From positions 512,071 to 576,070 of the forward strand of contig JACKDV010000004.1 in the NCBI GenBank assembly GCA_020633315.1: DNA of 64,000 nucleotides, read 5' to 3'. Below are positions 5,275 to 57,108 of this stretch, in pieces. Numbering within the stretch: the first letter of the stretch is position 1; every line of letters starts with the position of its first letter. The position numbers were made by a program, and so were the translations under genes. Under the pieces are notes generated by a model. It did not search any database. It was given only the letters and a program-made list of their open reading frames with translations, and was not told where the DNA came from. The stretch is from Myxococcales bacterium (GTDB taxonomy: Bacteria; Myxococcota_A; Polyangia; Nannocystales; Nannocystaceae).

Positions 5275-7026
5275 TCACCTCACCACGGCCTCCACCGCAA
5301 CGGTCCCCTCCTCGGCTGCCACCCACAGCCCGTCCACATCGAGCGCTCGCTCACTGGCCTCACCGAAGATCCGCAGCCGCAAGAGCGCACCGAGGTCGAG
5401 CACCGGCAGGCGATCCGAGCGCACGCGCAGCTGCTCGTCGAGCTGGCTGCGAAGCGCCTCGGGATCGAGCACGGCGGAGAAGCACGGCACCCGTCGCTCG
5501 CGATCGCCCTGCCGCTCGCGGCACCCCAGATACGCCGCATCGAGCGCACCACCCAGCCGCACCCGGCCTACCGCATCCTCGGGCCGAAGCGCCAGCACCC
5601 CGGTCGCGCCCAGCACCACGGTGCGCATCCCCGCGCGCTCGGGATCCCCCAGCTCGAGCACCACGCCGCCCAGCGTCGCCTCGATGCTCCCGTCACCCCG
5701 CGGGCGCAGCATCGGGGGTAGCTCCACCCCCAGCGCTCGAGTCTCCCAGCGCGTGCGCTCGCCGAGGCTCGCCTGCACCTCCTCGCGCAGTCCGCTGCGA
5801 TCGAGCTCGGCCTGCAGGCCCCCGCGCACCACCCACTCGGCCAGCAGACGATTGAGCAGATCTCCGCTCACGTCCACGCGGAGGTTGGCCCCCTCCCGTT
5901 CGGGCCGACGCGGCAACGGCAGCTCGGTGCCCAGCCACACCGCCTGGCTCGCGGCCTGGGTCCCCATCGCGTCCTCGCGGAGCTCCAGCCGCAGCGCCGC
6001 CGTGAGCCCGAGCTCGGCCGACAGCCGCGGCTCACCGCACCAATGGAGGTCGGCCACCAACGCCGGCTCGGTGGGCAGCACCACCACCTGCTCGGGCAGC
6101 CTCATCGCCTCGGTGGCCACCCGTAGCGCCCGCTCGATCTGCTCCTTGGCCTCGCGCTCCACCTCGCGCCGCGCCGTCTTCTCGCCCACCTTCTCGCCGA
6201 GCTTGCGCCCCACCAGCCCGCCTCCGGCCGCCACCGCCATGCCCAGCAGCGTGCCGCCGCCCGCCGCCGCCACCAGCCCGCCACCCACCGTGACCCCGAT
6301 CGCACCCAGGCGGCGCGCTCCCTCGGCGCGCGCGAGCGCCTCGAGCTTGGGCCCGGGCGCCGCGGTGTCGAGCCGGCGCAGCGAGGCGATGATGCCCGCG
6401 TCGCCCGAGCCCCGCACGTCGATCACCCCGGCCACCCGCAGGTCGCCCTTGTCCTCCTCGCTGGTGTCGAGCGCCACGTCGAAGCGCAGGCCGCCGTCGA
6501 CCACCTCGAGCACCTTGCGGGGCAGCACGCTGGTGGGCCCGAAGTACGCATTGCTCCGCGCCCCCGCGAGCAGCTTGGTCTCGACCACGGGCAGCAGCAG
6601 GTCGTGCACTCCCTGGGGGCCGAGCACCAGGCCCAGGTCGCAGCCGCGCTCCCGCTCGTGCTGCCAGGGGCCGGAGACCACCTCGTCGGAGAAGCGGGTC
6701 ACCCGACCCCCGCGACGGGTGAGCTCCAGCTCCACGAAGTGCAGGCCCGGGGACAGCCCGGGAAGCTCGAGCGCGATCCCGTCGTCGCCCACCGGCTGCA
6801 CCACCAGCTCGGTGTGGCGATCGAGCCGCGCCCGCAGCCGCTCGCGATCCTCCGCCGGCGAGACGGCAGCCTCGTAGCGCAGCGCCCCCGCCTCGGCCCG
6901 CAGCACCCCGGCCCCGCGCTCCAGCGCCTCGATCGGCCGCGGCAGCGCGCGCAGGCCCATCGCTCCGGCCACCGCCACGGCGGCGAAGCTCAGCATGCCC
7001 AGGCCGATCGAGAGCTCCTTGCGCAT
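5275..7026 (-). CDS. Hypothetical membrane protein (583 aa) with N-terminal TM helix and a Gly/Ala-rich internal hydrophobic segment
   Basis: ORF track. N-terminal MRKELSIGLGMLSFAAVAVAGAMG hydrophobic stretch. Coherent composition. Sits 4 bp downstream of the ABC ATPase-permease gene on the same strand. Confidence 0.55.
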   Translation of the reverse strand: MRKELSIGLGMLSFAAVAVAGAMGLRALPRPIEALERGAGVLRAEAGALRYEAAVSPAEDRERLRARLDRHTELVVQPVGDDGIALELPGLSPGLHFVELELTRRGGRVTRFSDEVVSGPWQHERERGCDLGLVLGPQGVHDLLLPVVETKLLAGARSNAYFGPTSVLPRKVLEVVDGGLRFDVALDTSEEDKGDLRVAGVIDVRGSGDAGIIASLRRLDTAAPGPKLEALARAEGARRLGAIGVTVGGGLVAAAGGGTLLGMAVAAGGGLVGRKLGEKVGEKTARREVEREAKEQIERALRVATEAMRLPEQVVVLPTEPALVADLHWCGEPRLSAELGLTAALRLELREDAMGTQAASQAVWLGTELPLPRRPEREGANLRVDVSGDLLNRLLAEWVVRGGLQAELDRSGLREEVQASLGERTRWETRALGVELPPMLRPRGDGSIEATLGGVVLELGDPERAGMRTVVLGATGVLALRPEDAVGRVRLGGALDAAYLGCRERQGDRERRVPCFSAVLDPEALRSQLDEQLRVRSDRLPVLDLGALLRLRIFGEASERALDVDGLWVAAEEGTVAVEAVVR

Positions 7027-7030
7027 GGCA

Positions 7031-8671
<1,641 letters not shown>

Positions 8672-8835
8672 CGCGCACCAAGGTAGCAGCCCTCGATCGC
8701 CTCGGCCTCGCTCGCGCCCCTGCGCCGCTCTCCGAACACCGATCCTCACCCCGTGTGGAGGCCCTCACGGCGCCCGACGAGAAAGCTCGGGCGCGCCTGA
8801 AACAACCCGGCCCCCACGGTAGTCTCCTGGGGCCA

Positions 8836-47633: not shown

Positions 47634-48412
47634 ATGTTCTCCTCCATCACCGTCGAGGGCTTCCGGTGCTTTCCGCGCTTCGAGCTGAGACCCCTCGAGC
47701 GCATCAACCTCCTTGTCGGCGCGAACAACTCCAGCAAGTCGGCGATGCTGGAGGCGATCGCATTGCTCGCCTCGCGTGGGGATCCAGCGCATCGTTCCCG
47801 AGATCGTGGAGCACGCGGGGATCCCCTGGGCAGACCAAGCCCTCGGGTTCAAGGTGTTCATCCGGCCCTCGGGCAGCTACGAGCAGATCAAGGACCTCAT
47901 CCCGACGGAGCTCGCATCACGCGTCCGCGAGACGGTGGGCATCATCGTCGACGCCGACGTATCCGTCGAAGGCCGATGGCGCTCCCTTCGCGACCACTGC
48001 TCGAGCACCGTGGTCGGCCTCTCGCCCGAGCAGTGGCCAGCGGCCCCCGTCTCCGAGGGACTCGTGATCGACTTCGAGGCGCCCCAGGGTCATCGGCGTC
48101 TCGGCTTGTGGATCATGCCCGACAACCGAGCACCGGGCATGATCGAGACCTTCCTACAGCCAGCGTCTTGAGCCGACAGGCTCCCCCACCGGATTGCGCG
48201 AGCTCGCCGAGCGCAGCTGCGACGAAGCCACTGACCTCGGAGCACCGTTCTGTGCCGTGCACCGCGACAAGGCCATCATCCACACCTGGCTCGCCTGGCA
48301 AGATCCCCCGGGCCGCCAGCTTCACGACGCGATCAAGCAGCGCCAGCTCGACCCATCGACGCCGCTCGGCCTCACCTTCGCGTCCTGGTTCCGTCGCCTC
48401 TACGATCTCTAG
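47634..48412 (+). pseudogene. Frameshifted/internally deleted remnant of an OLD-family (AAA-ATPase + TOPRIM) nuclease-like gene
   Basis: Frame 1 begins with the OLD/AAA15-type N-terminus MFSSITVEGFRCF...INLLVGANNSSKSAMLEAIALL (P-loop itself degenerate). The reading frame collapses after ~50 aa. Frame 2 (47713..48171) then reads IVPEIVEHAG...GIIVDADVSVEG...LGLWIMPDN (TOPRIM-like E and DxD). Frame 3 (48194..48412) continues to ...FASWFRRLYDL. Confidence 0.4.
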
Positions 48413-49161
48413 AAGTTGCTCGCCCCCTGGTCGATCCAGTCGGCGAGGTCGTCGATGAAGGAGGGGTCGAGCGGGTCGGCCCCCCGGGGCATGCGCGAGC
48501 CGCCGCCGCCCACCGAGCCCTGGCTGCCGCGGAGCTTGTGCCACAGGTAGCTGCTCTCGTGGTCACCCGGGTCGACCAGGTAGATCGTGCTCTGATCGGA
48601 GGCCACCATGTAGAGCGCGTAGTAGGGACCGTCGCTCAGGTCGAGCGAGGAGTCCTCGCCGCCCGGCTCGTGGCAGCCCGTCACGCAGTTGTCGGTGATC
48701 ACCGGCTCGAGCTCGCTCCACGCGATCGTCCGGGGCAGGTCGCAGGCGTCGGGCACCTCCTGGCCCATGCCCTCGAGCTCGGCCGCGGTGCTCTCGAGCG
48801 CATCGCGGCACTCCACGTCGCAGGCCGCCGCCTCGGGCGCGCCCGCGTCCCAGCAGCTGCCCTCGGATCCGTAGGCCTGCTCGATCGCCATGACGTCGTC
48901 GAGCATGAGGGTGGCCGCACACTCCACCCACTGCGCGCAGGCCTGGGTCTGGCTGGGCATGGGCGGCGGGCCGTCGTCGCTGCTGCCGTCGCCGTCACTC
49001 GAGGTGGTCGCGCCGCCCGTGTCGTCGTCGGTCGCGCTCGGCCCGGTGGCCTGCGGCTCGCCGGTGGAGCCCTCGGTGGTCTCGCCCGCCGGCTCTCCGC
49101 CCTCGCAGGCCAGGCCCAGCCCCAGCCCCACGAGCCCCGTGATCATCGCTCCCCTGCGCAT
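48409..49161 (-). CDS. Secreted lipoprotein, hypothetical (acidic, Cys-containing)
   Basis: Signal/lipobox (MRRGAMITGLVGLGLGLACEGG). Asp/Ser/Gly-rich low-complexity linker then a Cys-containing globular part. Start among three nearby Met codons is uncertain. Confidence 0.55.
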   Translation of the reverse strand: MRRGAMITGLVGLGLGLACEGGEPAGETTEGSTGEPQATGPSATDDDTGGATTSSDGDGSSDDGPPPMPSQTQACAQWVECAATLMLDDVMAIEQAYGSEGSCWDAGAPEAAACDVECRDALESTAAELEGMGQEVPDACDLPRTIAWSELEPVITDNCVTGCHEPGGEDSSLDLSDGPYYALYMVASDQSTIYLVDPGDHESSYLWHKLRGSQGSVGGGGSRMPRGADPLDPSFIDDLADWIDQGASNF

Positions 49162-49244
49162 CGCGACGCCCATCGTACGACGCCGCGAGCCCTGCGGGGG
49201 ACCCCAGCGACGGGCGGGCGCGCGCCCTGCTATCATCGTGCGCC

Positions 49245-50024
49245 GTGCTGCGACGCACCGGTCGTCTGCTGCTGGCCGAGGTGCGGCGCCTGGTCTCGTA
49301 CTCGGCCCTCACCGTGCTGGTGGTCCAGGCCCTCGTGCGCCGCCCCGCCGAGGGCGGCCGCACCGTCCGCATGCAGGTGGCCAAGCAGATCGTGTTCAGC
49401 GCCTGGGACGGGGTGCCGCTGGTGCTGCTCATCGGCGCGCTCATGTCGGTCTCGATGGTGGCGCTCTCGGTCGCCCTGATCCCGAGCTTCGAGGCCACCC
49501 CGCTGGTGGGCCGCGTGCTCGCCTACGGGCTGGTGCGCGAGCTGGCGCCGCTGATGTCGGCGATCCTCGTGATCCTGCGCTCGAGCGGCGCCATCTCGGT
49601 GGAGCTGGGCTACATGAGCTGGCGCGGCGAGGTGGAGGCGCTGGAGACCCTGGGCATCGACCCGGCCAAGTTCCTGCTGCTGCCGCGCTTCGCCGGCCTG
49701 AGCGTGGCCACGGTCACCCTCAACATGCTCTTCGTGGTGGCCGCGGGGGGAGCCGGTCTGCTCACGGCCCAGGTCCTCGGGGTGGCCCCCTCGCTCTCCT
49801 ACGTGGGTGCCAACCTCGAGCAGCTCCTGCTGCCCGAGGACGCGGTGGTCTCCTTCGTCAAGAGCCTGCTGTTCGGGGGCACCATCGCCGCGGTCGCCTG
49901 CTACCACGGCCTGTCGGTCCGCGAGGATCTCACCGAGGTGCCCCGCCGGGCCAGCCGCGCCCTGGTCGAGTCGCTGAGCTGGTGCACGGTCATCGGCGTG
50001 TCCATCACCCTCATCACCCTATGA
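49245..50024 (+). CDS. mlaE: MlaE-family ABC transporter permease
   Basis: MlaE signature (GEVEALETLGIDPAKFLLLPRFAGL, cf. EQIDAL..MGI.P.RYLV.PR). 5-6 TM helices. Confidence 0.85.
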   Translation: MLRRTGRLLLAEVRRLVSYSALTVLVVQALVRRPAEGGRTVRMQVAKQIVFSAWDGVPLVLLIGALMSVSMVALSVALIPSFEATPLVGRVLAYGLVRELAPLMSAILVILRSSGAISVELGYMSWRGEVEALETLGIDPAKFLLLPRFAGLSVATVTLNMLFVVAAGGAGLLTAQVLGVAPSLSYVGANLEQLLLPEDAVVSFVKSLLFGGTIAAVACYHGLSVREDLTEVPRRASRALVESLSWCTVIGVSITLITL

Positions 50025-50683
50025 GCGTCATCGAGATCGAGGACCTGGGCATCCGACGAGGCGCCGCCGCGCTGCAGGGCGTGTCGCTGCGGGTGGGCGA
50101 GGGCGAGTCGGTGGCGGTGGTGGGCGACGACCAGGCCAGCCTCACCCTGCTCGTACGCTGCTGCGGGGGCCTGCTGCGCCCCGATCGCGGGCACGTGCGC
50201 GTGGGGGGGGTCGACGTGGTGGCGGCCGACCGGCACGCCCTGCTGGACCTGCGGCGAGCCTTGGGCTACGTGTCGATCCACGGGGGCCTGCTCGCCAACA
50301 TGACGCTGCGCGACAACGTGGAGCTGCCCATGCGCTACCACGCCGTGGCCGAGCCGGCCGAGATCACGGCCCGAGCCGACGCCCTGCTCGACGAGGCCGG
50401 GCTGCAGGGCCGCGCCAACGAGCCCGCCTCGGCCCTGCCCGCCGAGATCCAGAAGGTCGTGGCCTACCTGCGCGCGGTGGCGACCGAGCCGCGGGTGCTG
50501 CTGGTGGAGGACCCCAGCGCCCTGCTGCCGCCCCGCGGCCGGGCGTTCGTGCGCGGGCTCCATCGCCGGCTGCGCGAGCGCGGGGTGACGGTGCTGGTGA
50601 CCGACGACGACGTCGCCTTCGCGGCCGAGCTCACCGATCGGCAGCTCCGCATCGAGAGCCTCTCGCGGGGAGGCGCCGCGTGA
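50024..50683 (+). CDS. MlaF-like ABC ATPase paralog with degenerate catalytic motifs (pseudo-ATPase)
   Basis: ABC NBD fold and length. Walker A lacks the Lys (VAVVGDDQASLTLL instead of GxxGxGKS/T). Signature degenerate (LPAEIQKVV instead of LSGGQ). Walker B is VLLVEDPS. H-loop His replaced (VTVLVTDDD). Start overlaps the mlaE stop (ATGA). Confidence 0.7.
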   Translation, partial: SVIEIEDLGIRRGAAALQGVSLRVGEGESVAVVGDDQASLTLLVRCCGGLLRPDRGHVRVGGVDVVAADRHALLDLRRALGYVSIHGGLLANMTLRDNVELPMRYHAVAEPAEITARADALLDEAGLQGRANEPASALPAEIQKVVAYLRAVATEPRVLLVEDPSALLPPRGRAFVRGLHRRLRERGVTVLVTDDDVAFAAELTDRQLRIESLSRGGAA

Positions 50684-51720
50684 GCCTGCCGTTCCGCATC
50701 CGCCGGGCCGAGTGGGTGGCGGGGGCCTTCGTGCTCCTGGCCGTGGTCGCCCTGGTCGCCAGCCTGGTGCTGCTGTCGCGCGCGCGGGGCAGCTTCGAGG
50801 CCACGACCACCTACACCGTGGTCCTCCGCGACGGCTACGGCATCACCCCCGGCAGCCGGGTGGAGATGCTCGGCATCGACGTGGGCAGCATCACCGAGCT
50901 CGAGATCAGCGACGACAACCAAGTGGTGGTGGAGCTCGAGGTCCGCGAGAGCTTCGCCCCGCGGATCGCCGAGGGCTCCACCGCGCGGGTCAAGGCCTCG
51001 CTCGACCTGCAGGGCGTGCTGGGTGGGGTGGGCCTGGCCATCACCCCGGGCCGCCCCGACTCGACCCCGCTGCCGCCGGGCTCCCGCATCGAGGTGCACG
51101 AGCCCACCAGCCTGGTCGACCTGCTGCCCGTGGTGCCCGGCGATCCGCTGGTGGACGACCTCGCCGCGCTGGTGCACAACGCCCGGCTGATGAGCGACGA
51201 GGTGGCCGACCCCGAGTCGCCGCTGCACCGGGCGCTGGCCCAGCTCACCGAGCTGCTGGTGAAGATCCAGGACCGCGAGAGCACGGTGGGCCGCGTGCTC
51301 CAGGACGACGGCGAGCTCTACGGCCGCCTGATCGGCGTGCTCGACGACGTGGACGGCACGATGGGGCGGCTCGAGAAGGTGCTGGCGCGCTCCGACCGGC
51401 TGCTCCGCAGCGCCGACGGCATGGTCGACCGCGGCGACGAGCTGATGGAGGGCGCCGACGAGCTGATGGACAGCAGCGCCAAGGTGGTCGCCGGGATCCC
51501 GCCCGTGCTCGACGGCACCGATGCGGCGATGAAGGATCTCGACGAGGCGGTGCGAGCCTTCGCCGAGACCACCCGCGAGCTGAAGGCCGTCGTCGAGTCC
51601 ATGGGCCCGCTGGTGGAGCACATGGACGAGATGGTCGAGGACATGGACGCGGTGGCCGAGGCCGCGGCCAAGGTGTGGCCGCTGCGAAGGCACGCCCGCC
51701 GGGCCAAGCGCGGGGACTGA
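50680..51720 (+). CDS. MlaD/MCE-family protein with C-terminal helical extension
   Basis: N-terminal TM (WVAGAFVLLAVVALVASLVLL) followed by the MCE domain (YTVVLRDGYGITPGSRVEMLGIDVGSITELEI). Overlaps the upstream stop by 4 nt. Confidence 0.8.
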   Translation: MSLPFRIRRAEWVAGAFVLLAVVALVASLVLLSRARGSFEATTTYTVVLRDGYGITPGSRVEMLGIDVGSITELEISDDNQVVVELEVRESFAPRIAEGSTARVKASLDLQGVLGGVGLAITPGRPDSTPLPPGSRIEVHEPTSLVDLLPVVPGDPLVDDLAALVHNARLMSDEVADPESPLHRALAQLTELLVKIQDRESTVGRVLQDDGELYGRLIGVLDDVDGTMGRLEKVLARSDRLLRSADGMVDRGDELMEGADELMDSSAKVVAGIPPVLDGTDAAMKDLDEAVRAFAETTRELKAVVESMGPLVEHMDEMVEDMDAVAEAAAKVWPLRRHARRAKRGD

Positions 51721-51734
51721 GCCGCGGGTCCCCC

Positions 51735-52718
51735 TCAGCCGGCGGCGAGCTGATCCATCAGGTCGCCGAAGTACGAGGGCAGGCTGTCCCACGGGTTGGG
51801 GAGCACGTCGTCGGTCACGTAGATCCAGCCCACGTGCTGCAGCGCCGCGCTCACGAAGCCCGCGTCGAGGCTCGGCACCGAGTGGGGGATGATGGCGAAG
51901 TGGCTGCGGTCGTAGGCGTCGGTCCAGCCGCCCAGCGCCTCGGGCATGGGCAGCCCCGCGGCCTCGTAGACGAACATCGTGTCGACGGTGTCGACGAAGC
52001 TCTCGGGGATGCCCGCCCCCGGGTTGCCCACGGTGAAGCCGAAGCCCAGGCCGGCGGCGAAGGTCGACAGCCCCGCGTAGTACGCCTCGTTCCCCGGCAC
52101 GTTGCTCATCTCGTCGAACATGATGCCCTCGAGCTGCGGATAGAAGCTCGCATAGCTGGTGATGTCGGCCTGCACGTCGGCCGCGGGGCGGCCCGCGTAG
52201 GAGGTGTAGACGTAGCCGATCACCACCACCCCGGCGGCCTGGAGCGCCGTGATCCCGGCGTCGTAGCTCGGATCGAGGACCATGCCGGGGCCGCTGCCGG
52301 GATTGATGATCGCCACCACCTCGACCTCGGGGTGCTCGAGCTTGGCGGTCGCGACCGTGGTCCAGCTCGGGTCGGTGGGATAGGTGTACAGCGGGATGAT
52401 CGTGCCGCCGGCCTCGAGCACGGCGCCCGTGCTGGAGTCGGCGCCCGTGCTCGTGTCCGCCCCGCCCGTGCTCGTGTCCGCCCCGCCCGTGCTCGTGTCC
52501 GCCCCGCCCGTGCTCGTGTCCGCCATGCCGCTCGATCCGATGCCGTCGCTGGTGGAGGGGGCGGAGGTGCGGGTGTCCCCCGTGGTCGAGGTGTTGGCCC
52601 CGGTGGAGCCCCCGTCGCTGGAGCCCTCGTCGTCGGAGCCGGGGCAGCCGCCCGCTCCCAGGGCCAGCAGCGCCGCGAGGATGGAGGCAAGAGGTCGTGA
52701 GGCCAAGGTGAGTCGCAT
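51735..52718 (-). CDS. Spherulation-specific family 4 (Spherulin-4-like) secreted lipoprotein with Thr/Ser/Gly tandem repeat linker
   Basis: Lipoprotein signal (ILAALLALGAGGCPG). TSTGGAD x4 repeat. The conserved Spherulin-4 core includes IIPLYTYP...W and VVAIINPGSGPG. Confidence 0.7.
   Translation of the reverse strand: MRLTLASRPLASILAALLALGAGGCPGSDDEGSSDGGSTGANTSTTGDTRTSAPSTSDGIGSSGMADTSTGGADTSTGGADTSTGGADTSTGADSSTGAVLEAGGTIIPLYTYPTDPSWTTVATAKLEHPEVEVVAIINPGSGPGMVLDPSYDAGITALQAAGVVVIGYVYTSYAGRPAADVQADITSYASFYPQLEGIMFDEMSNVPGNEAYYAGLSTFAAGLGFGFTVGNPGAGIPESFVDTVDTMFVYEAAGLPMPEALGGWTDAYDRSHFAIIPHSVPSLDAGFVSAALQHVGWIYVTDDVLPNPWDSLPSYFGDLMDQLAAG
52426..52524. repeat. 21-bp tandem repeat, ~4.5 copies (gcccgtgctcgtgtccgcccc), encoding TSTGGAD repeats on the minus strand
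   Basis: Three perfect consecutive 21-mers plus flanking imperfect copies, visible directly in the sequence at 52441..52520. Confidence 0.8.
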
Positions 52719-52750
52719 GCTCGTCTCGCTCCGCATCCGCAGTGGCTCCG

Positions 52751-52948
52751 CTAGTGAATCGCGGGCTCGTCGGTGCTCGGCTCGTCCTCCTCGGGCACGA
52801 GCACGGCCCCCAGCGCCTTGAACAGATCCTCGAGCTGCGGCCGCTCCATGCGGAGGGTCACCGCGCCCGTGCTCACGTGGTACACGCCGCAGGAGCAGCG
52901 AGCGATGCGGCACTGGGGCCGCTGGACGAGGACCTTGCGGATGTGTTC
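52751..52948 (-). CDS. Small Cys-containing hypothetical protein (65 aa)
   Basis: MEHIRKVLVQRPQCRIARCSCGVYHVSTGAVTLRMERPQLEDLFKALGAVLVPEEDEPSTDEPAIH. Strongly GC3-biased codons and non-repetitive sequence. No recognised family. Confidence 0.35.
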   Translation of the reverse strand, partial: EHIRKVLVQRPQCRIARCSCGVYHVSTGAVTLRMERPQLEDLFKALGAVLVPEEDEPSTDEPAIH

Positions 52949-53099
52949 CATCGGGACGGCTCCCGCGAAGCGTAGCAACTCGGGGCGGCCGCGTCCCCGC
53001 CGCGCCCTCGATCGGTGCTTCCACGAAGATGGCCGCGCCCGCGCTCGGTCGCCTCCATCGCCCGCCCGGGCTGCTCCTGCGATCACAGGGAGCGCCCGC

Positions 53100-55571
53100 C
53101 TACCCCGGCGGCGCGCACTCGATCTCGACCGCGTCGGTGTTGTTCTGGTCGTTGCACTCCACCGTCAGCGCCCCGCCCATGCCGTCGTCGTTGACCACCA
53201 TGGTGATGAGGCCCATCACCTCCGAGCCGATGGCGCAGCTCACCTCGCGGCACTCGCCCACGGGCACCGGCTCGGCGGTGTAGGCCACGCACAGCACCTG
53301 GCCGTCGGCGGGGTCGCCCAGGTAGAAGGTGGCGGGCAGGGCCGCCGCCACCGCCTTGAGCCCGCGGTTGCACACCGTACCCATCAGGATGATGTCGGAG
53401 CCGTCGAGGGTGCAGGCCGAGTCCTCGAGCTTGCCGGTGATGTCGGGCAATTCCTCGGCCGAGGCGTCACCCTGCTCGTTCTGCCGGTAGTTGTTGCGCG
53501 CGGGGTCGCTGAAGTTCTGCTCCCACACCCCGGTGGCGGGGATGCTCAGGTCGTCGCCCACGTTGGTGATGGAGTAGGCGTGCTGGTTCCACAGCGAGCG
53601 CGAGCTGGCCCAGCGGTCGAGGCGATCGCGGAGCACCCTCACCCCCGAGATCGCGGTGCCGGGCGGGTGCGTGGCGCGGCAGGTGTTGCCGGTGCCCCCG
53701 GTGCCGGCCGGCGGCGCGGCGCAGCTGTGGCCGCCCGGGCACTCGCCGTCGTCGGCACAGCGGCAGAAGCCGGCGTCGCACACCCCCGAGGGGCAGCCGG
53801 TGCCGTCCTCGCAGCGCAGGCCCCGGTGGATCGGATCGATGGCCGGGCAGCTCACGCTGCAGTTGGTGTTGGAGCCGACCAGGATCTCGGTGTTGTCGTC
53901 GATGTCGAGGTCGGCCACGATCGGGTTCTCGTACCAGGTGCACGAGGTGCGCGCGGACGAGTAGAGCACCTCGCCCGAGGCGCCCTCGTAGACCCGCAGG
54001 TAGCACTCGTCGCCGTAGACCGCCTCGGCCTGGCCGTCGCCCTCGAAGTCGAAGATCGACGAGCCGGTGTTGCTCGAGCTGAGGTCCTGCGAGGGCTGCA
54101 CCCAGCGCACCCACTGCCCCGCGCAGCCGGGGGTCATGGCGTCCACGCAGTCGAGATCGAACACGCGATAGTAGTTGCCGCCGGCCGAGGCGATCTCGGG
54201 CAGGCCGTCGTCGTCGAAGTCGCCGATGGTGGGCGGGCCTCCGCCCGCGATCCCGCCCACGCTCAGCAGCGGCTGCCCGTCGAGGGTGTGCAGCTCCACC
54301 GTGCCCGCGCCCACCGTCACCACCTCGGCGATGCCGTCGAGGGTGGCGCGGTCGAAGTCGGCCGGGGTCGGGCCCGGGGTGCCGAAGTCGGCGAAGCCGT
54401 AGTGCCGCCCGCCCGGCGAGCCCGGGTGGGTCATCAGCCACTGGCTGGAGCCGGGATCCCAGCTCCAGATCCCGTTGGCGACCAGGTCGGCCGTGCCGTC
54501 GCGGTCGAGGTCGCCCACCACCGAGAACACCCCCGGCGAGACCCCGTAGCCTCCCGCCACGAGCTGCCCCGGGTTGAGCCGCGCTCCGGTCACGCCGTCG
54601 TAGACCTCGCTGCTGCTCACCACCTCGGGCATGCCGTCGCCGTCGAGGTCGTGGATGGCGGGGCCGTCCCAGCGGTTGGCGCCCGAGATGTTGGTGTCGC
54701 CCGCGACCCACATCGTCACGTAGCGCTGGGTGCCGGGATCCCAGGTGAAGGCCACCACCCCGCTCACCGCCCGCAGGGTGACGATCTCGGGGACCCCGTC
54801 GCCGTCGAGATCGCCGATGGCCGGCGGCGTGGCGGCGATGATGCGGTTGGCCGGGTCATCGATGGTGTCGACCTGCTCGCAGGTCTGCCCGTTGAGGATG
54901 CGGATCACCCCGTAGCACGCGGGATCGGAGCCCCAGCTCGAGGCCGAGCCGCCGTCGGTGCAGTTGTAGGTGACCAGCGCAATCTCGCCGGGATGCCCCG
55001 AGTCGTAGGGGAGCTGGGCCACCAGCGGAGTGGTGAGCACGTTGACGTGGTTGGGGAAGGGATCGCCGACCGGCGGCGTCGTCCACTCGCACTGCAGGTC
55101 GGGCTCGAACAGGCCGATCACCACGTCGCCCAGGCACTCGTCGTCCACGTCGCCGCGCGGGCCCTCGCCGTAGGGGATGCACCAGCCGCCCTCCTCGCCC
55201 TCGGGCAGGCAGCCCTCGGCGCAGCAGTAGGTGTCGCCCGTGCAGTCGTCGTCGGTCTCGCAGGGACCATCGGTGGGCACGCACTCGCCCGCGGCGCAGG
55301 CCTGCAGCTCGGGGCAATCCAGGCTCGCCGTGCAGCTCATCCCGCCGGTGCCGGTGGAGTCGGCCCCCGTCGCCACCTCGGTCTCGCCCTCGGTGCCGCC
55401 GGTGGCCGAGTCGGTCTCGCCGTCGGTGGCGGTGACGGTGATCGGCGGAACCCCGGTGTCGGGGCCATCGGCGGGCGGCGTGCCGTTGCAGGCCCCCGCC
55501 ATCGCCATCGTGGTGAGCCCGACCCCCGCGGTCCCGCGCAGTCCTCGCTTCGTCCCTCGTTGCCTCTGCAT
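53100..55571 (-). CDS. Large secreted FG-GAP (integrin-alpha-like beta-propeller) repeat protein with Cys-rich modules
   Basis: Multiple FG-GAP/Ca-binding loops (IGDLDGDGVPEIV, HDLDGDGMPEVV, VGDLDRDGTADLV, IGDFDDDGLPEIA, FDFEGDGQAEAV, ADLDIDDNTEILV). Cys-rich EGF-like stretches. Lipoprotein-like signal after MQRQRG. Confidence 0.75.
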   Translation of the reverse strand: MQRQRGTKRGLRGTAGVGLTTMAMAGACNGTPPADGPDTGVPPITVTATDGETDSATGGTEGETEVATGADSTGTGGMSCTASLDCPELQACAAGECVPTDGPCETDDDCTGDTYCCAEGCLPEGEEGGWCIPYGEGPRGDVDDECLGDVVIGLFEPDLQCEWTTPPVGDPFPNHVNVLTTPLVAQLPYDSGHPGEIALVTYNCTDGGSASSWGSDPACYGVIRILNGQTCEQVDTIDDPANRIIAATPPAIGDLDGDGVPEIVTLRAVSGVVAFTWDPGTQRYVTMWVAGDTNISGANRWDGPAIHDLDGDGMPEVVSSSEVYDGVTGARLNPGQLVAGGYGVSPGVFSVVGDLDRDGTADLVANGIWSWDPGSSQWLMTHPGSPGGRHYGFADFGTPGPTPADFDRATLDGIAEVVTVGAGTVELHTLDGQPLLSVGGIAGGGPPTIGDFDDDGLPEIASAGGNYYRVFDLDCVDAMTPGCAGQWVRWVQPSQDLSSSNTGSSIFDFEGDGQAEAVYGDECYLRVYEGASGEVLYSSARTSCTWYENPIVADLDIDDNTEILVGSNTNCSVSCPAIDPIHRGLRCEDGTGCPSGVCDAGFCRCADDGECPGGHSCAAPPAGTGGTGNTCRATHPPGTAISGVRVLRDRLDRWASSRSLWNQHAYSITNVGDDLSIPATGVWEQNFSDPARNNYRQNEQGDASAEELPDITGKLEDSACTLDGSDIILMGTVCNRGLKAVAAALPATFYLGDPADGQVLCVAYTAEPVPVGECREVSCAIGSEVMGLITMVVNDDGMGGALTVECNDQNNTDAVEIECAPPG

Positions 55572-55803
55572 TGCCCCGACTCCTCTCGCTCGCGGCCTCG
55601 CGGCCGTGGCCTCGCGGCCTGGCCCTCGCGCCGCGCCCAGCCCAGGATAGGACACCGCTTCGTCACGTTTTGCCGACATCGACGGCCCCCACGACGTGGG
55701 ACCGCGCCGGACCGTGCCGCGGCGCTCGATGCCGCTCCGTGCCCGCGAGGCCGGGTCGCTTTGACAGCCCGGCCCCGCGGGCGCACGCTGCCCGTGAGCA
55801 CGG

Positions 55804-57108
55804 ATGGCCGATCGACCAGCCACCAAGGGACGACGCTTGATCCGCCTCGCCGGGATGACCGCGCGGGTCGCGACCAACTACACCAAGTCCCGGGTCAAGT
55901 CGGTGTTCCTGAGCAAGGAGTCGGCCGAGCGCGATCGGGTCAAGGCCCACGAGGAGGCGGGCGAGCTCATCGCCAAGACCCTCGGCGAGCTCAAGGGCGC
56001 GGTGATGAAGGTGGGCCAGATGGCCTCCATCGCCGGCGACCTGCTGCCCAAGGAGCTCGCCGACGCCCTCGGGGCCCTGCAGCGCGAGGCGCCCCCCATG
56101 GACTTCTCGGTGATCGCCGAGCAGATCGAGCGGGAGCTGGGCGCCCCGCCGCCCATGCTCTTCCAGCGCTTCGACGAGCAGCCCTTCGCCTCGGCCTCGA
56201 TCGGCCAGGTGCACCGCGCCCGCACCGACGACGGGCGCGAGGTGGTGGTGAAGGTGCAGTACCCGGGGGTCGACGACGCGGTCGACTCCGACCTCGCCCA
56301 CCTCAAGATCGCGCTGCGAGCCAGCGGCCTGGTGAAGGTGAAGAAGCAGGCGCTCGACGCCGTGTTCGCCGAGATCAAGGCGCGGCTGCACGAGGAGCTC
56401 GACTACTGCAACGAGTCCGACAACGTGCGGCTGTTCGGCGAGTACTACCGAGGGCGCGAGGGCGTGGTGGTGCCCGAGGTGGTCGGCGAGCGCAGCAGCC
56501 AGCGGGTGCTCACCCTCACCTACGAGCCGGGGCACCACATCGGCGAGCTCGAGGAGTTCCCGCAGCAGGTGCGCAACCGCATCGGCGAGGCGCTGTTTCG
56601 GCTGCTGGCCCAGCAGATCTTCGAGCTAGGGGTGCTCCACGCCGACCCCAACCCCGGCAACTTCGCGTTCCGCCCCGACGGCACGATCGTGCTGTACGAC
56701 TTCGGCTGCATCAAGCGCCTCGATCCCGAGATCGTGGAGGCCTACCGCGACACGATCCGGGCCGGCTTCGACGAGGACTACGCGGGCGTGGAGGACGGCC
56801 TGGTGCGCCTGGGCGCGCGCAACCTCGAGGGACCGCAGGTCCCGCTGGACTACTACAAGCCCTGGCGCGACATCTTCATGCGCCCGCTGCTCGGCGACGA
56901 GCCCTACGACTACGGCCACTCGAGCCTGCAGCAGGACGCGCTCAAGCTCGTCCCCGGCTTCATCACCAAGTACATGCGCAGCTTCCAGCCGCCCGTCGAG
57001 CTGGTGTTCCTCGATCGCGTGGTGGTGGGGCACTACGGCAACCTGCGCAAGCTGGGCGCGATCGGCCAGTACCGCGGGCTGCTCGAGCCCTACGTGGCGC
57101 AGGGCTGA
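55804..57108 (+). CDS. ABC1/UbiB (aarF-domain) family atypical protein kinase
   Basis: ABC1 family motifs: KxGQ (VMKVGQMASIAGDLLP), FDEQPFASASIGQVHRA, VVKVQYPGV, and catalytic HADPNPGNF...YDFG. Confidence 0.85.
   Translation: MADRPATKGRRLIRLAGMTARVATNYTKSRVKSVFLSKESAERDRVKAHEEAGELIAKTLGELKGAVMKVGQMASIAGDLLPKELADALGALQREAPPMDFSVIAEQIERELGAPPPMLFQRFDEQPFASASIGQVHRARTDDGREVVVKVQYPGVDDAVDSDLAHLKIALRASGLVKVKKQALDAVFAEIKARLHEELDYCNESDNVRLFGEYYRGREGVVVPEVVGERSSQRVLTLTYEPGHHIGELEEFPQQVRNRIGEALFRLLAQQIFELGVLHADPNPGNFAFRPDGTIVLYDFGCIKRLDPEIVEAYRDTIRAGFDEDYAGVEDGLVRLGARNLEGPQVPLDYYKPWRDIFMRPLLGDEPYDYGHSSLQQDALKLVPGFITKYMRSFQPPVELVFLDRVVVGHYGNLRKLGAIGQYRGLLEPYVAQG

Follow-up and report, generated by a model that had tools for sequence, protein, structure and literature searches.

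Both the way in which phospholipids travel between the two membranes of diderm bacteria and the role of ATP hydrolysis in Mla/MCE transport, which may set the direction or supply the driving force, are still under debate. MlaF, the ATPase of the MlaFEDB complex, belongs with MceG/Mkl and TGD3 to one MlaF-type group of ATP-binding cassette (ABC) nucleotide-binding domains (NBDs). Here we describe a relative of MlaF encoded in a 64,000-nucleotide stretch of DNA (hereafter the window) from a Myxococcales bacterium of the Nannocystaceae (assembly GCA_020633315.1, contig JACKDV010000004.1, positions 512,071 to 576,070 of the forward strand). The protein has the same fold and the same place between an MlaE permease and an MCE protein as the MlaF of Escherichia coli, Acinetobacter baumannii and Pseudomonas aeruginosa (6xbd, 7d06 and 7ch8), but all of its ATP-binding and catalytic motifs are replaced, and we refer to it as the pseudo-NBD. 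It also lacks the C-terminal “handshake” extension of MlaF (220 versus 269 amino acids), and its operon has no MlaB/STAS gene. A first reading of this DNA, made from the letters and their open reading frames and called here the original prediction, had proposed a dead NBD inside an otherwise intact mlaE-mlaF-mlaD operon.

The arrangement of the operon is like that of the minimal MlaEFD system of Veillonella parvula. In the passages of Grasekamp et al. 2023 (PMC10665443) drawn on here, MlaEFD with an elongated MlaD is presented as a widespread and probably ancestral envelope-spanning core. The V. parvula operon described there has three genes in the order E-F-D, overlapping start and stop codons and no adjacent mlaA, mlaB or mlaC gene, and the operon in the window, which none of these genes adjoins, resembles it in all of these respects. 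The V. parvula MlaD is about twice the E. coli length and has a long helical extension, which the 346-amino-acid MCE protein of the window fits. The two systems differ in that, according to the same passages, V. parvula MlaF is close to proteobacterial MlaF, whereas the NBD here is predicted to be catalytically dead, and in that no C-terminal beta-barrel is predicted in the MCE protein here.

Two further kinds of system invite comparison. In PqiABC and LetAB of E. coli, as may be the case here, an MCE tunnel stands on an inner-membrane protein without an ATPase. PqiA and LetA are unrelated to MlaE, however, and PqiABC and LetAB have no NBD-like subunit, whereas the inner-membrane subunit here is MlaE (PF02405) and a subunit with the NBD fold is retained. 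In TM287/288, CFTR, TAP1/2, PatAB and LmrCD, the defects of two different NBDs lie together in one site, and the other remains a consensus site that hydrolyses ATP. Like these transporters, the pseudo-NBD has non-canonical Walker B, H-loop and signature residues that are kept under selection. Heterodimeric ABC transporters have two distinct NBDs, whereas each operon of the family described below holds a single NBD gene, and here both halves of the site and Walker A are defective, so that neither site is predicted to function.

A translationally coupled mlaE-NBD-MCE operon

Three tightly coupled genes on the + strand of the window, which has a G+C content of 72%, encode an MlaE-type permease, an ABC-type NBD and an MCE protein:

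49245..50024, + strand: mlaE-like permease gene (259 amino acids, GTG start; Pfam MlaE, 153 bits, profile positions 2-211 of 212)
50021..50683, + strand: pseudo-NBD gene, ABC fold with every nucleotide-handling motif replaced (220 amino acids, ATG start, TGA stop)
50680..51720, + strand: elongated MlaD/MCE gene (346 amino acids, GTG start; Pfam MlaD, 50 bits; NCBIfam Mtu_fam_mce, 75 bits)

The mlaE stop codon and the NBD start codon overlap as ATGA (50021-50024), and the NBD stop codon and the GTG start of the MCE gene overlap as GTGA (50680-50683). Translational coupling on both sides, as originally proposed, is therefore upheld, with the qualification that only the overlap on the mlaE side is ATGA. 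The NBD gene, earlier taken to start at 50024, begins at 50021; position 50024 is the final base of the ATGA overlap. The operon consists of these three genes only, and no STAS (MlaB) match was found among the scanned neighbour genes.

The pseudo-NBD keeps the fold and has lost the motifs

Pfam ABC_tran (PF00005) matched the pseudo-NBD at 42.9 bits against a cut-off of 25, placing it in the ABC superfamily by homology, and HMMER (phmmer) comparison with the solved NBDs of ArtP, MlaF, FtsE and LolD in the PDB gave E values of about 1e-21. Its AlphaFold2 model (predicted local distance difference test score [pLDDT], 94.5; predicted template modelling [TM] score, 0.90) superposed on E. coli MlaF (6xbd_I) with a TM score of 0.88 and a root mean square deviation of 2.0 Å over 212 columns. 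The model superposed similarly on the NBDs of LolD, FtsE, MacB and MceG, with Foldseek TM scores of 0.82-0.88 for LolD, MlaF and FtsE. Retention of the NBD fold and length, one of the claims under study, was thus confirmed. The NCBIfam MlaF model PRK11831 was not passed (71.2 bits against a cut-off of 441); the FtsE, DevA and CbiO models gave scores slightly above that for MlaF, all of them far under their cut-offs. The protein ends about 8 residues past the last NBD strand. By homology and context the pseudo-NBD is an MlaF-type NBD, and, judged from its sequence, it is no ABC ATPase by any catalytic criterion.

The motifs were located in HMMER alignments with solved ArtP and A. baumannii MlaF, which were free of gaps across all of them:

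50123..50146, + strand: former Walker A, G35-D-D-Q38-A-S-L41-T42, aligned without gaps to GPSGSGKS of ArtP and GPSGTGKT of MlaF
50264..50341, + strand: former Q-loop and start of the helical subdomain, G82-H107, GYVSIHGGLLANMTLRDNVELPMRYH, with Gln replaced by Ser85
50435..50455, + strand: former signature motif, L139-P-A-E-I-Q-K145 in place of LSGGxxK/R, with K145 invariant
50495..50542, + strand: former Walker B and D-loop, V159-L-L-V-E163-D164-P-S-A-L-L-P170-P-R-G173-R174, with E-D, P165, G173 and R174 invariant
50600..50611, + strand: former H-loop, T194-D195-D196-D197, with His replaced by Asp (D195) and DDD invariant

These alignments supported each of the motif losses first read from the letters. 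The Walker A lysine (lost from what had been noted as GDDQAS, here GDDQASLT) is replaced by Leu41, next to a Q38 that is invariant in the family; LPAEIQK stands in place of LSGGQ; the Asp-Glu of Walker B reads E163-D164; and the H-loop histidine is D195 of TDDD. In addition, the A-loop aromatic position is occupied by Ile11, and the D-loop Asp position is P170 in the window protein and His in about 90% of its relatives. The catalytic residues have not merely been displaced by an insertion: the alignments are gap-free, the superposition holds to 2.0 Å, and a displaced Walker A lysine is impossible because the only lysine in the whole protein is K145.

The replacement residues are conserved in a small family

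A search of 5.8 billion proteins returned, at 90% identity, about 60 clusters from NCBI, JGI, ENA and Logan assemblies; their members, of 215-226 amino acids, are 52-100% identical to the pseudo-NBD and carry the same substitutions. Below this family, scores fall sharply to canonical ABC ATPases of at most 38% identity, and the nearest non-degenerate database matches share 31-34% identity and carry the name [quoted passage not shown] More distant members (P0121-P0125 and P0127) came from a profile search of 1.84 billion representatives, in which the family also proved small: about seven clusters (50% identity) scored above the canonical NBDs that form the background. A 100%-identical protein was present in an independent assembly (P0001), which, together with the shared substitutions of the family, excluded an assembly error or a pseudogene as the source of the motif loss.

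Down to 40% identity, Q38, K145, Y149, R151, E163-D164-P165, G173-R174 and D195-D196-D197 are invariant. In an alignment of 52 family members, 16 of the 18 former motif positions were at least 90% conserved, compared with 74 of the 194 other positions (Fisher p = 3e-5); in a broader set of 22 sequences reaching 40% identity, the figures were 11 of 18 and 52 of 194 (p = 0.004). The most conserved stretches were residues 81-103, comprising the former Q-loop and the next helix (sliding-window conservation, 0.9), and residues 156-175. Across the two main subclades, amino acid identity was about 55% for the NBD, 46% for MlaE and 42% for the MCE protein. Positions 36-37 of the P-loop differed between subclades (DD, PH, RH or ED). 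Nei-Gojobori dN/dS ratios for four orthologous operons lay between 0.3 and 0.6 for all three genes and were uninformative, synonymous sites being both constrained and saturated at 72% GC; we set them aside and rest the selection argument on relative amino acid conservation. As conservation is higher at the former motif positions than elsewhere in the protein, the ATP site has been rebuilt and is held under purifying selection rather than just freed from constraint. The same degenerate motifs thus recur in related operons, and the dead NBD, its catalytic death being predicted from sequence, is maintained by selection in an intact, coupled mlaE-NBD-MCE operon, as the original prediction had anticipated.

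At three sites conserved to at least 90% in the family, the window protein itself carries another residue: P in place of R135, V in place of C146 and, in the former D-loop, P in place of H170. These states turn up sporadically in other members (P0038 and P0122), and all three are shared by the identical copy.

When one genome per GTDB species was scanned, the family was found in 14 species (loci L006-L019). All classified carriers are Myxococcota, assigned to Nannocystaceae/Nannocystales or recorded as “Deltaproteobacteria” metagenome-assembled genomes (MAGs), together with Paraliomyxa miuraensis. Every family locus with both the permease and the MCE gene on the contig has the gene order MlaE-NBD-MCE (E-N-D) and a single NBD; no second NBD gene was found in the operons at the 14 species-level loci. 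The triplet recurs in P. miuraensis and in MAGs with quite different flanking genes, usually with the 4-bp overlaps kept.

MlaE and MCE partners

The MlaE of the window aligns to P. aeruginosa MlaE (7ch8_G), Mycobacterium smegmatis YrbE1A and E. coli MlaE and keeps an EAA-like coupling-helix motif, ELGYMSWRGEVEALETLGIDP; the mlaE start of the Paraliomyxa ortholog is conserved. By analogy with ABC architecture (PMC7790496), the MlaE coupling helix is expected to dock in a groove at residues 81-103 (or G82-H107) of the pseudo-NBD. The stretch 81-103 keeps an MlaF-like “NVxLPxRxH” signature, and alignment with MlaF gives “NVxxPLRxH” for the region that both share behind the Q-loop.

The MCE protein consists of an N-terminal transmembrane helix (about residues 7-39), an MCE beta-barrel (42-140) and about 190 amino acids of C-terminal helices. 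In an AlphaFold2 monomer model only the transmembrane helix and the MCE domain (pLDDT of 80-90 for the latter) were confident, and the helical tail was low, below 50 in parts, and uninterpretable as a monomer; this model predicted no C-terminal beta-barrel. The MCE protein has a cytoplasmic N-terminal tail, [MV]S[LIV]PFR[IVL]RRAEW (50680..50720 in the window; loci L001-L018), that is near-invariant in proteins that are only about 42% identical overall. We considered this tail (SxPFRIRRAEW) as a basic ligand for the acidic pocket described below and dropped it as non-specific, because elongated MCE proteins of other phyla have related basic/aromatic N-terminal motifs ([FY][RK]x[RK]Hx[ED][KR]xVG), also in operons whose NBDs keep Walker A.

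Graded motif erosion in related operons

The genome scan also recovered many more E-N-D operons with single NBDs, from Nitrospirota, Nitrospinota, Planctomycetota, Spirochaetota, Verrucomicrobiota and other Myxococcota (loci L020-L066, L070-L072, L075, L079-L080 and L083-L084). Their NBDs mostly keep Walker A and have non-canonical signatures (SLG, SYN, SEE and others), an H-loop residue of N, S, Q, G, R or Y, and often D-D, D-S or E-D at Walker B; L025, for example, reads GPTGSGKT, SLGEKK, LLIDDP and VTNH. The Walker A lysine is also lost in a few of them (L020, L021, L023, L043 and a Nitrospirota set with G-R-G), as in the GSGL of L020 and L023, the GSGT of L021 and the SGRG of L037, which has an E-D Walker B.

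A neighbor-joining tree built from the linked MlaE proteins recovered the fully degenerate clade as monophyletic. Its sister group, L042 and L079 (both Myxococcota) with L080, keeps GK[ST] and has lost the Q-loop Gln, the signature, the catalytic Glu and the His (L042 reads GPASGKT, FVFENG, TLALRQ, LFLDSP and SAYD), so these NBDs are, on paper, catalytically dead as well. The next group out (L062, L066 and L084) retains the Q-loop too. The pattern looks like a stepwise erosion that ended with the loss of nucleotide binding, although the sample was biased by the search patterns and the tree is rough. More broadly, it suggests a widespread, graded erosion of catalytic motifs in the NBDs of MCE operons.

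A proposed passive lipid conduit with a pseudo-NBD scaffold

On this evidence, the ABC-type lipid transporter of a lineage of marine myxobacteria seems to have no ATP engine of its own. The best explanation, to which we assign a probability of roughly 0.55, is a passive, equilibrative trans-envelope lipid conduit in which the pseudo-NBD serves as a scaffold. The pseudo-ATPase would have descended from an MlaF-type NBD, with its fold and MlaE-docking surface kept and ATP binding and hydrolysis lost. It should not bind ATP, because the P-loop lysine is gone, Q38 and S40 stand in for glycines and five acidic residues line the pocket. The ATP site would have been rebuilt into a conserved, strongly acidic pocket composed of Q38 from the P-loop, E163-D164 from Walker B and D195-D196-D197 from the H-loop, with the invariant G173-R174, after the D-loop, adjoining it. 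Produced in a fixed ratio with MlaE through translational coupling, the pseudo-NBD would be a structural subunit that needs no nucleotide; it would stabilise the MlaE dimer and hold it in one conformation, the counterpart of MlaFEDB in its outward-open, nucleotide-free form. There the lipid pocket of MlaE would be continuous with the MCE pore, and with the elongated, hexameric MCE protein it would form a passive conduit for lipids across the periplasm rather than an ATP-driven pump. Operon context places the probable action of the pseudo-NBD with MlaE and the MCE protein, and the motif states predict that ATP hydrolysis is absent.

A passive mode is plausible because nucleotide-free MlaFEDB is outward-open, with its MlaE pocket continuous with the MlaD pore (PMC7790496), and because lipid can move without hydrolysis in related complexes. 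Phospholipid still passes spontaneously from MlaC to a complex carrying the Walker A-dead MlaF K47A, and wild-type complexes without ATP transfer lipid in both directions, ATP hydrolysis setting the direction (bioRxiv 10.1101/2021.05.25.445566). In vitro, lipids equilibrate passively and in both directions through PqiABC, an MCE system that has no ATPase (bioRxiv 10.64898/2026.09.15.751761), and the present system may, by analogy, work in the same way.

Several points weigh against a passive scaffold. The five acidic residues of the cluster, Q38 and R174 are conserved more strictly than such a scaffold would require, which hints at a specific ligand, cation or protein-contact function. In Mycobacterium tuberculosis, MceG Walker B mutants fail to stabilise Mce1 and Mce4 (PMC9947336), so that stabilisation there depends on a functional ATP site. 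Finally, our view covers 64 kb, and an unlinked canonical ATPase of the MlaF/MceG type may lie elsewhere in the genome.

A bolder version of the passive conduit, which we hold tentatively and at short of even odds, is that the system has dispensed with nucleotides altogether by re-engineering the NBD. The acidic pocket (Q38, E163, D164 and D195-197), possibly together with R174 across the dimer, would act as a “glue” replacing ATP or as a cation or ligand latch, and MlaE-MCE would be a constitutive or differently gated passive conduit across the envelope. The graded erosion described above would then imply that, outside model organisms, MCE transporters with weak catalysis or none are common.

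Alternative explanations

A possible, if unlikely, role is that of a regulatory sensor or gate. The ligand of the pocket could be a basic stretch of a partner protein, a polyamine or another cationic metabolite, or a divalent cation. Its binding would switch the NBD dimer, and with it MlaE, between conformations, so that ligand occupancy, and no longer ATP, would control a passive conduit. The invariance of Q38, E163, D164, D195-197 and G173-R174 down to 40% identity fits such a role, as does a former site more conserved than the rest of the protein, which goes beyond the retention of a scaffold. The variation of P-loop positions 36-37 between subclades argues in the other direction; no conserved sensor-type partner gene was found beside the operon at the loci examined, and no ligand was identifiable for the pocket. 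That an arginine reaching into the acidic pocket locks the dimer in place of ATP (a putative arginine latch or filled pocket), or that the pocket forms a latch gated by a cation or ligand, is likewise unlikely but a serious alternative.

A third possibility, that the operon is energised in trans, is improbable. A canonical ATPase would pair with the dead NBD on MlaE or replace it, leaving the dead NBD as a placeholder or decoy, and the candidates are an unlinked MlaF/MceG-type subunit and the only other NBD in the window, which the original prediction had proposed as a source of borrowed energy. It belongs to a pair of genes, the second of which lies 4 nt downstream of the first:

7031..8749, - strand: canonical MlaF-type NBD fused N-terminally to an MlaE permease domain (572 amino acids, Pfam)
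5275..7026, - strand: 583-amino-acid protein with no Pfam match and an N-terminal hydrophobic segment

The fusion gene, previously given as 7031..8671, encodes an NBD in which all motifs are canonical (GGSGAGKST, VPQ, LSGGEAQR, LLFLDEP and ITHD), and this NBD and the dead-NBD operon occur together on an 11.1-Mb contig. In mycobacteria, moreover, one unlinked MceG serves several mce operons (PMC9947336). Against these points, the canonical NBD is joined covalently to an MlaE domain of its own and stands in a separate operon with a different, Pfam-less partner. Its family is also far wider than that of the dead NBD: at E ≤ 1e-20 it gave 725 hits in Nannocystaceae, including Enhygromyxa salina, Pseudenhygromyxa and strain ST9. 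Enhygromyxa and Pseudenhygromyxa were absent among the named matches for the dead NBD in the protein search and the species-level genome scan, which argues that the fused NBD is not its dedicated partner. The composite ATP site of an NBD dimer is built from halves of both NBDs; since both halves are degenerate in the dead NBD (Walker A, Walker B and H-loop on one side, the signature on the other), no partner would restore a consensus site, and a heterodimer would lack one. Translational coupling on both sides argues in addition for a stoichiometric resident subunit. Borrowing of the fused ATPase is therefore unlikely, and of the options first put forward, the structural or energy-independent role is favoured over a borrowed ATPase.

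No MCE gene lies beside the fusion gene and its 583-amino-acid partner, and the two may form an MlaFE module with a non-MCE periplasmic partner. The pair of fusion and Pfam-less partner is conserved in a relative (L086); in Enhygromyxa salina (L085) the partner of the fusion is a 313-amino-acid protein, also without a Pfam match.

Very improbable is a non-canonical use of nucleotides, in which the site would still bind or hydrolyse ATP or another phosphorylated ligand with unconventional residues. A Ser or Thr is kept at Walker A position 8 (T42/S42) and an acidic residue at the Mg position of Walker B (E163), but there is no Lys or Arg in the P-loop, where L41 occupies the lysine position and glycines 4 and 6 are Q38 and S40; the A-loop aromatic residue, the Q-loop Gln, the Ser-Gly-Gly of the signature and the H-loop His are all lost; and a net acidic pocket should repel phosphates. 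There is next to no chance that the operon is being lost and that its NBD gene is a decaying or non-functional remnant, whether a pseudogenising MlaF or the product of faulty sequencing or assembly. The ABC_tran score is low and all NCBIfam ABC-ATPase matches fall far under their cut-offs, but the frame is intact and the length conserved in about 60 clusters that independent assemblies supplied, conservation is higher in the NBD than in its operon partners, the replaced positions do not vary, the AlphaFold2 model is highly confident, and the relatives, at 40-82% identity and with different flanking genes, are not copies of one contaminating assembly.

Neighbouring genes

Three genes flank the operon, all on the opposite strand:

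48409..49236, - strand: gene divergent from the operon, no Pfam match
51735..53024, - strand: convergent downstream gene for a Spherulin4-family protein (PF12138, 151 bits) with a low-complexity, Ser/Thr/Gly-rich N-terminal region
53100..55877, - strand: convergent downstream gene for a 925-amino-acid FG-GAP repeat protein

The true start of the divergent gene is likely the internal MGVAMRRGAMITGLVGLGLGLAC, which would give a lipoprotein-like signal with a lipobox Cys; its C-terminal part, with CVTGCH and a WIDQGA-type ending, is reminiscent of planctomycete-type cytochrome c domains. In Paraliomyxa (L002), a Pfam-less gene (6325-7119) occupies the same position, and an FG-GAP gene likewise lies downstream of the operon.

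Significance

In full-text literature searches, neither fully degenerate MlaF-type NBDs nor motif erosion in the NBDs of MCE operons were found described, which is no proof of absence, and the MlaF passages of the Mla phylogenomics paper (PMC10665443) make no mention of motif loss. Public annotations of the family as “ATP-binding cassette domain-containing protein” or “MlaF ATPase subunit” are functionally misleading, and the family is a clear prokaryotic addition to the short list of fully degenerate ABC NBDs. It represents a natural, selected MlaE-MCE system whose NBD is predicted to be unable to use ATP, in effect an evolutionary knock-out of the motor with the chassis kept. Because the carriers include a named strain whose genome has been assembled, Paraliomyxa miuraensis SMH-27-4, the structural role of the NBD for MlaE, the proposed action of MlaE-MCE as a passive conduit and the ligand of the acidic pocket are directly testable.

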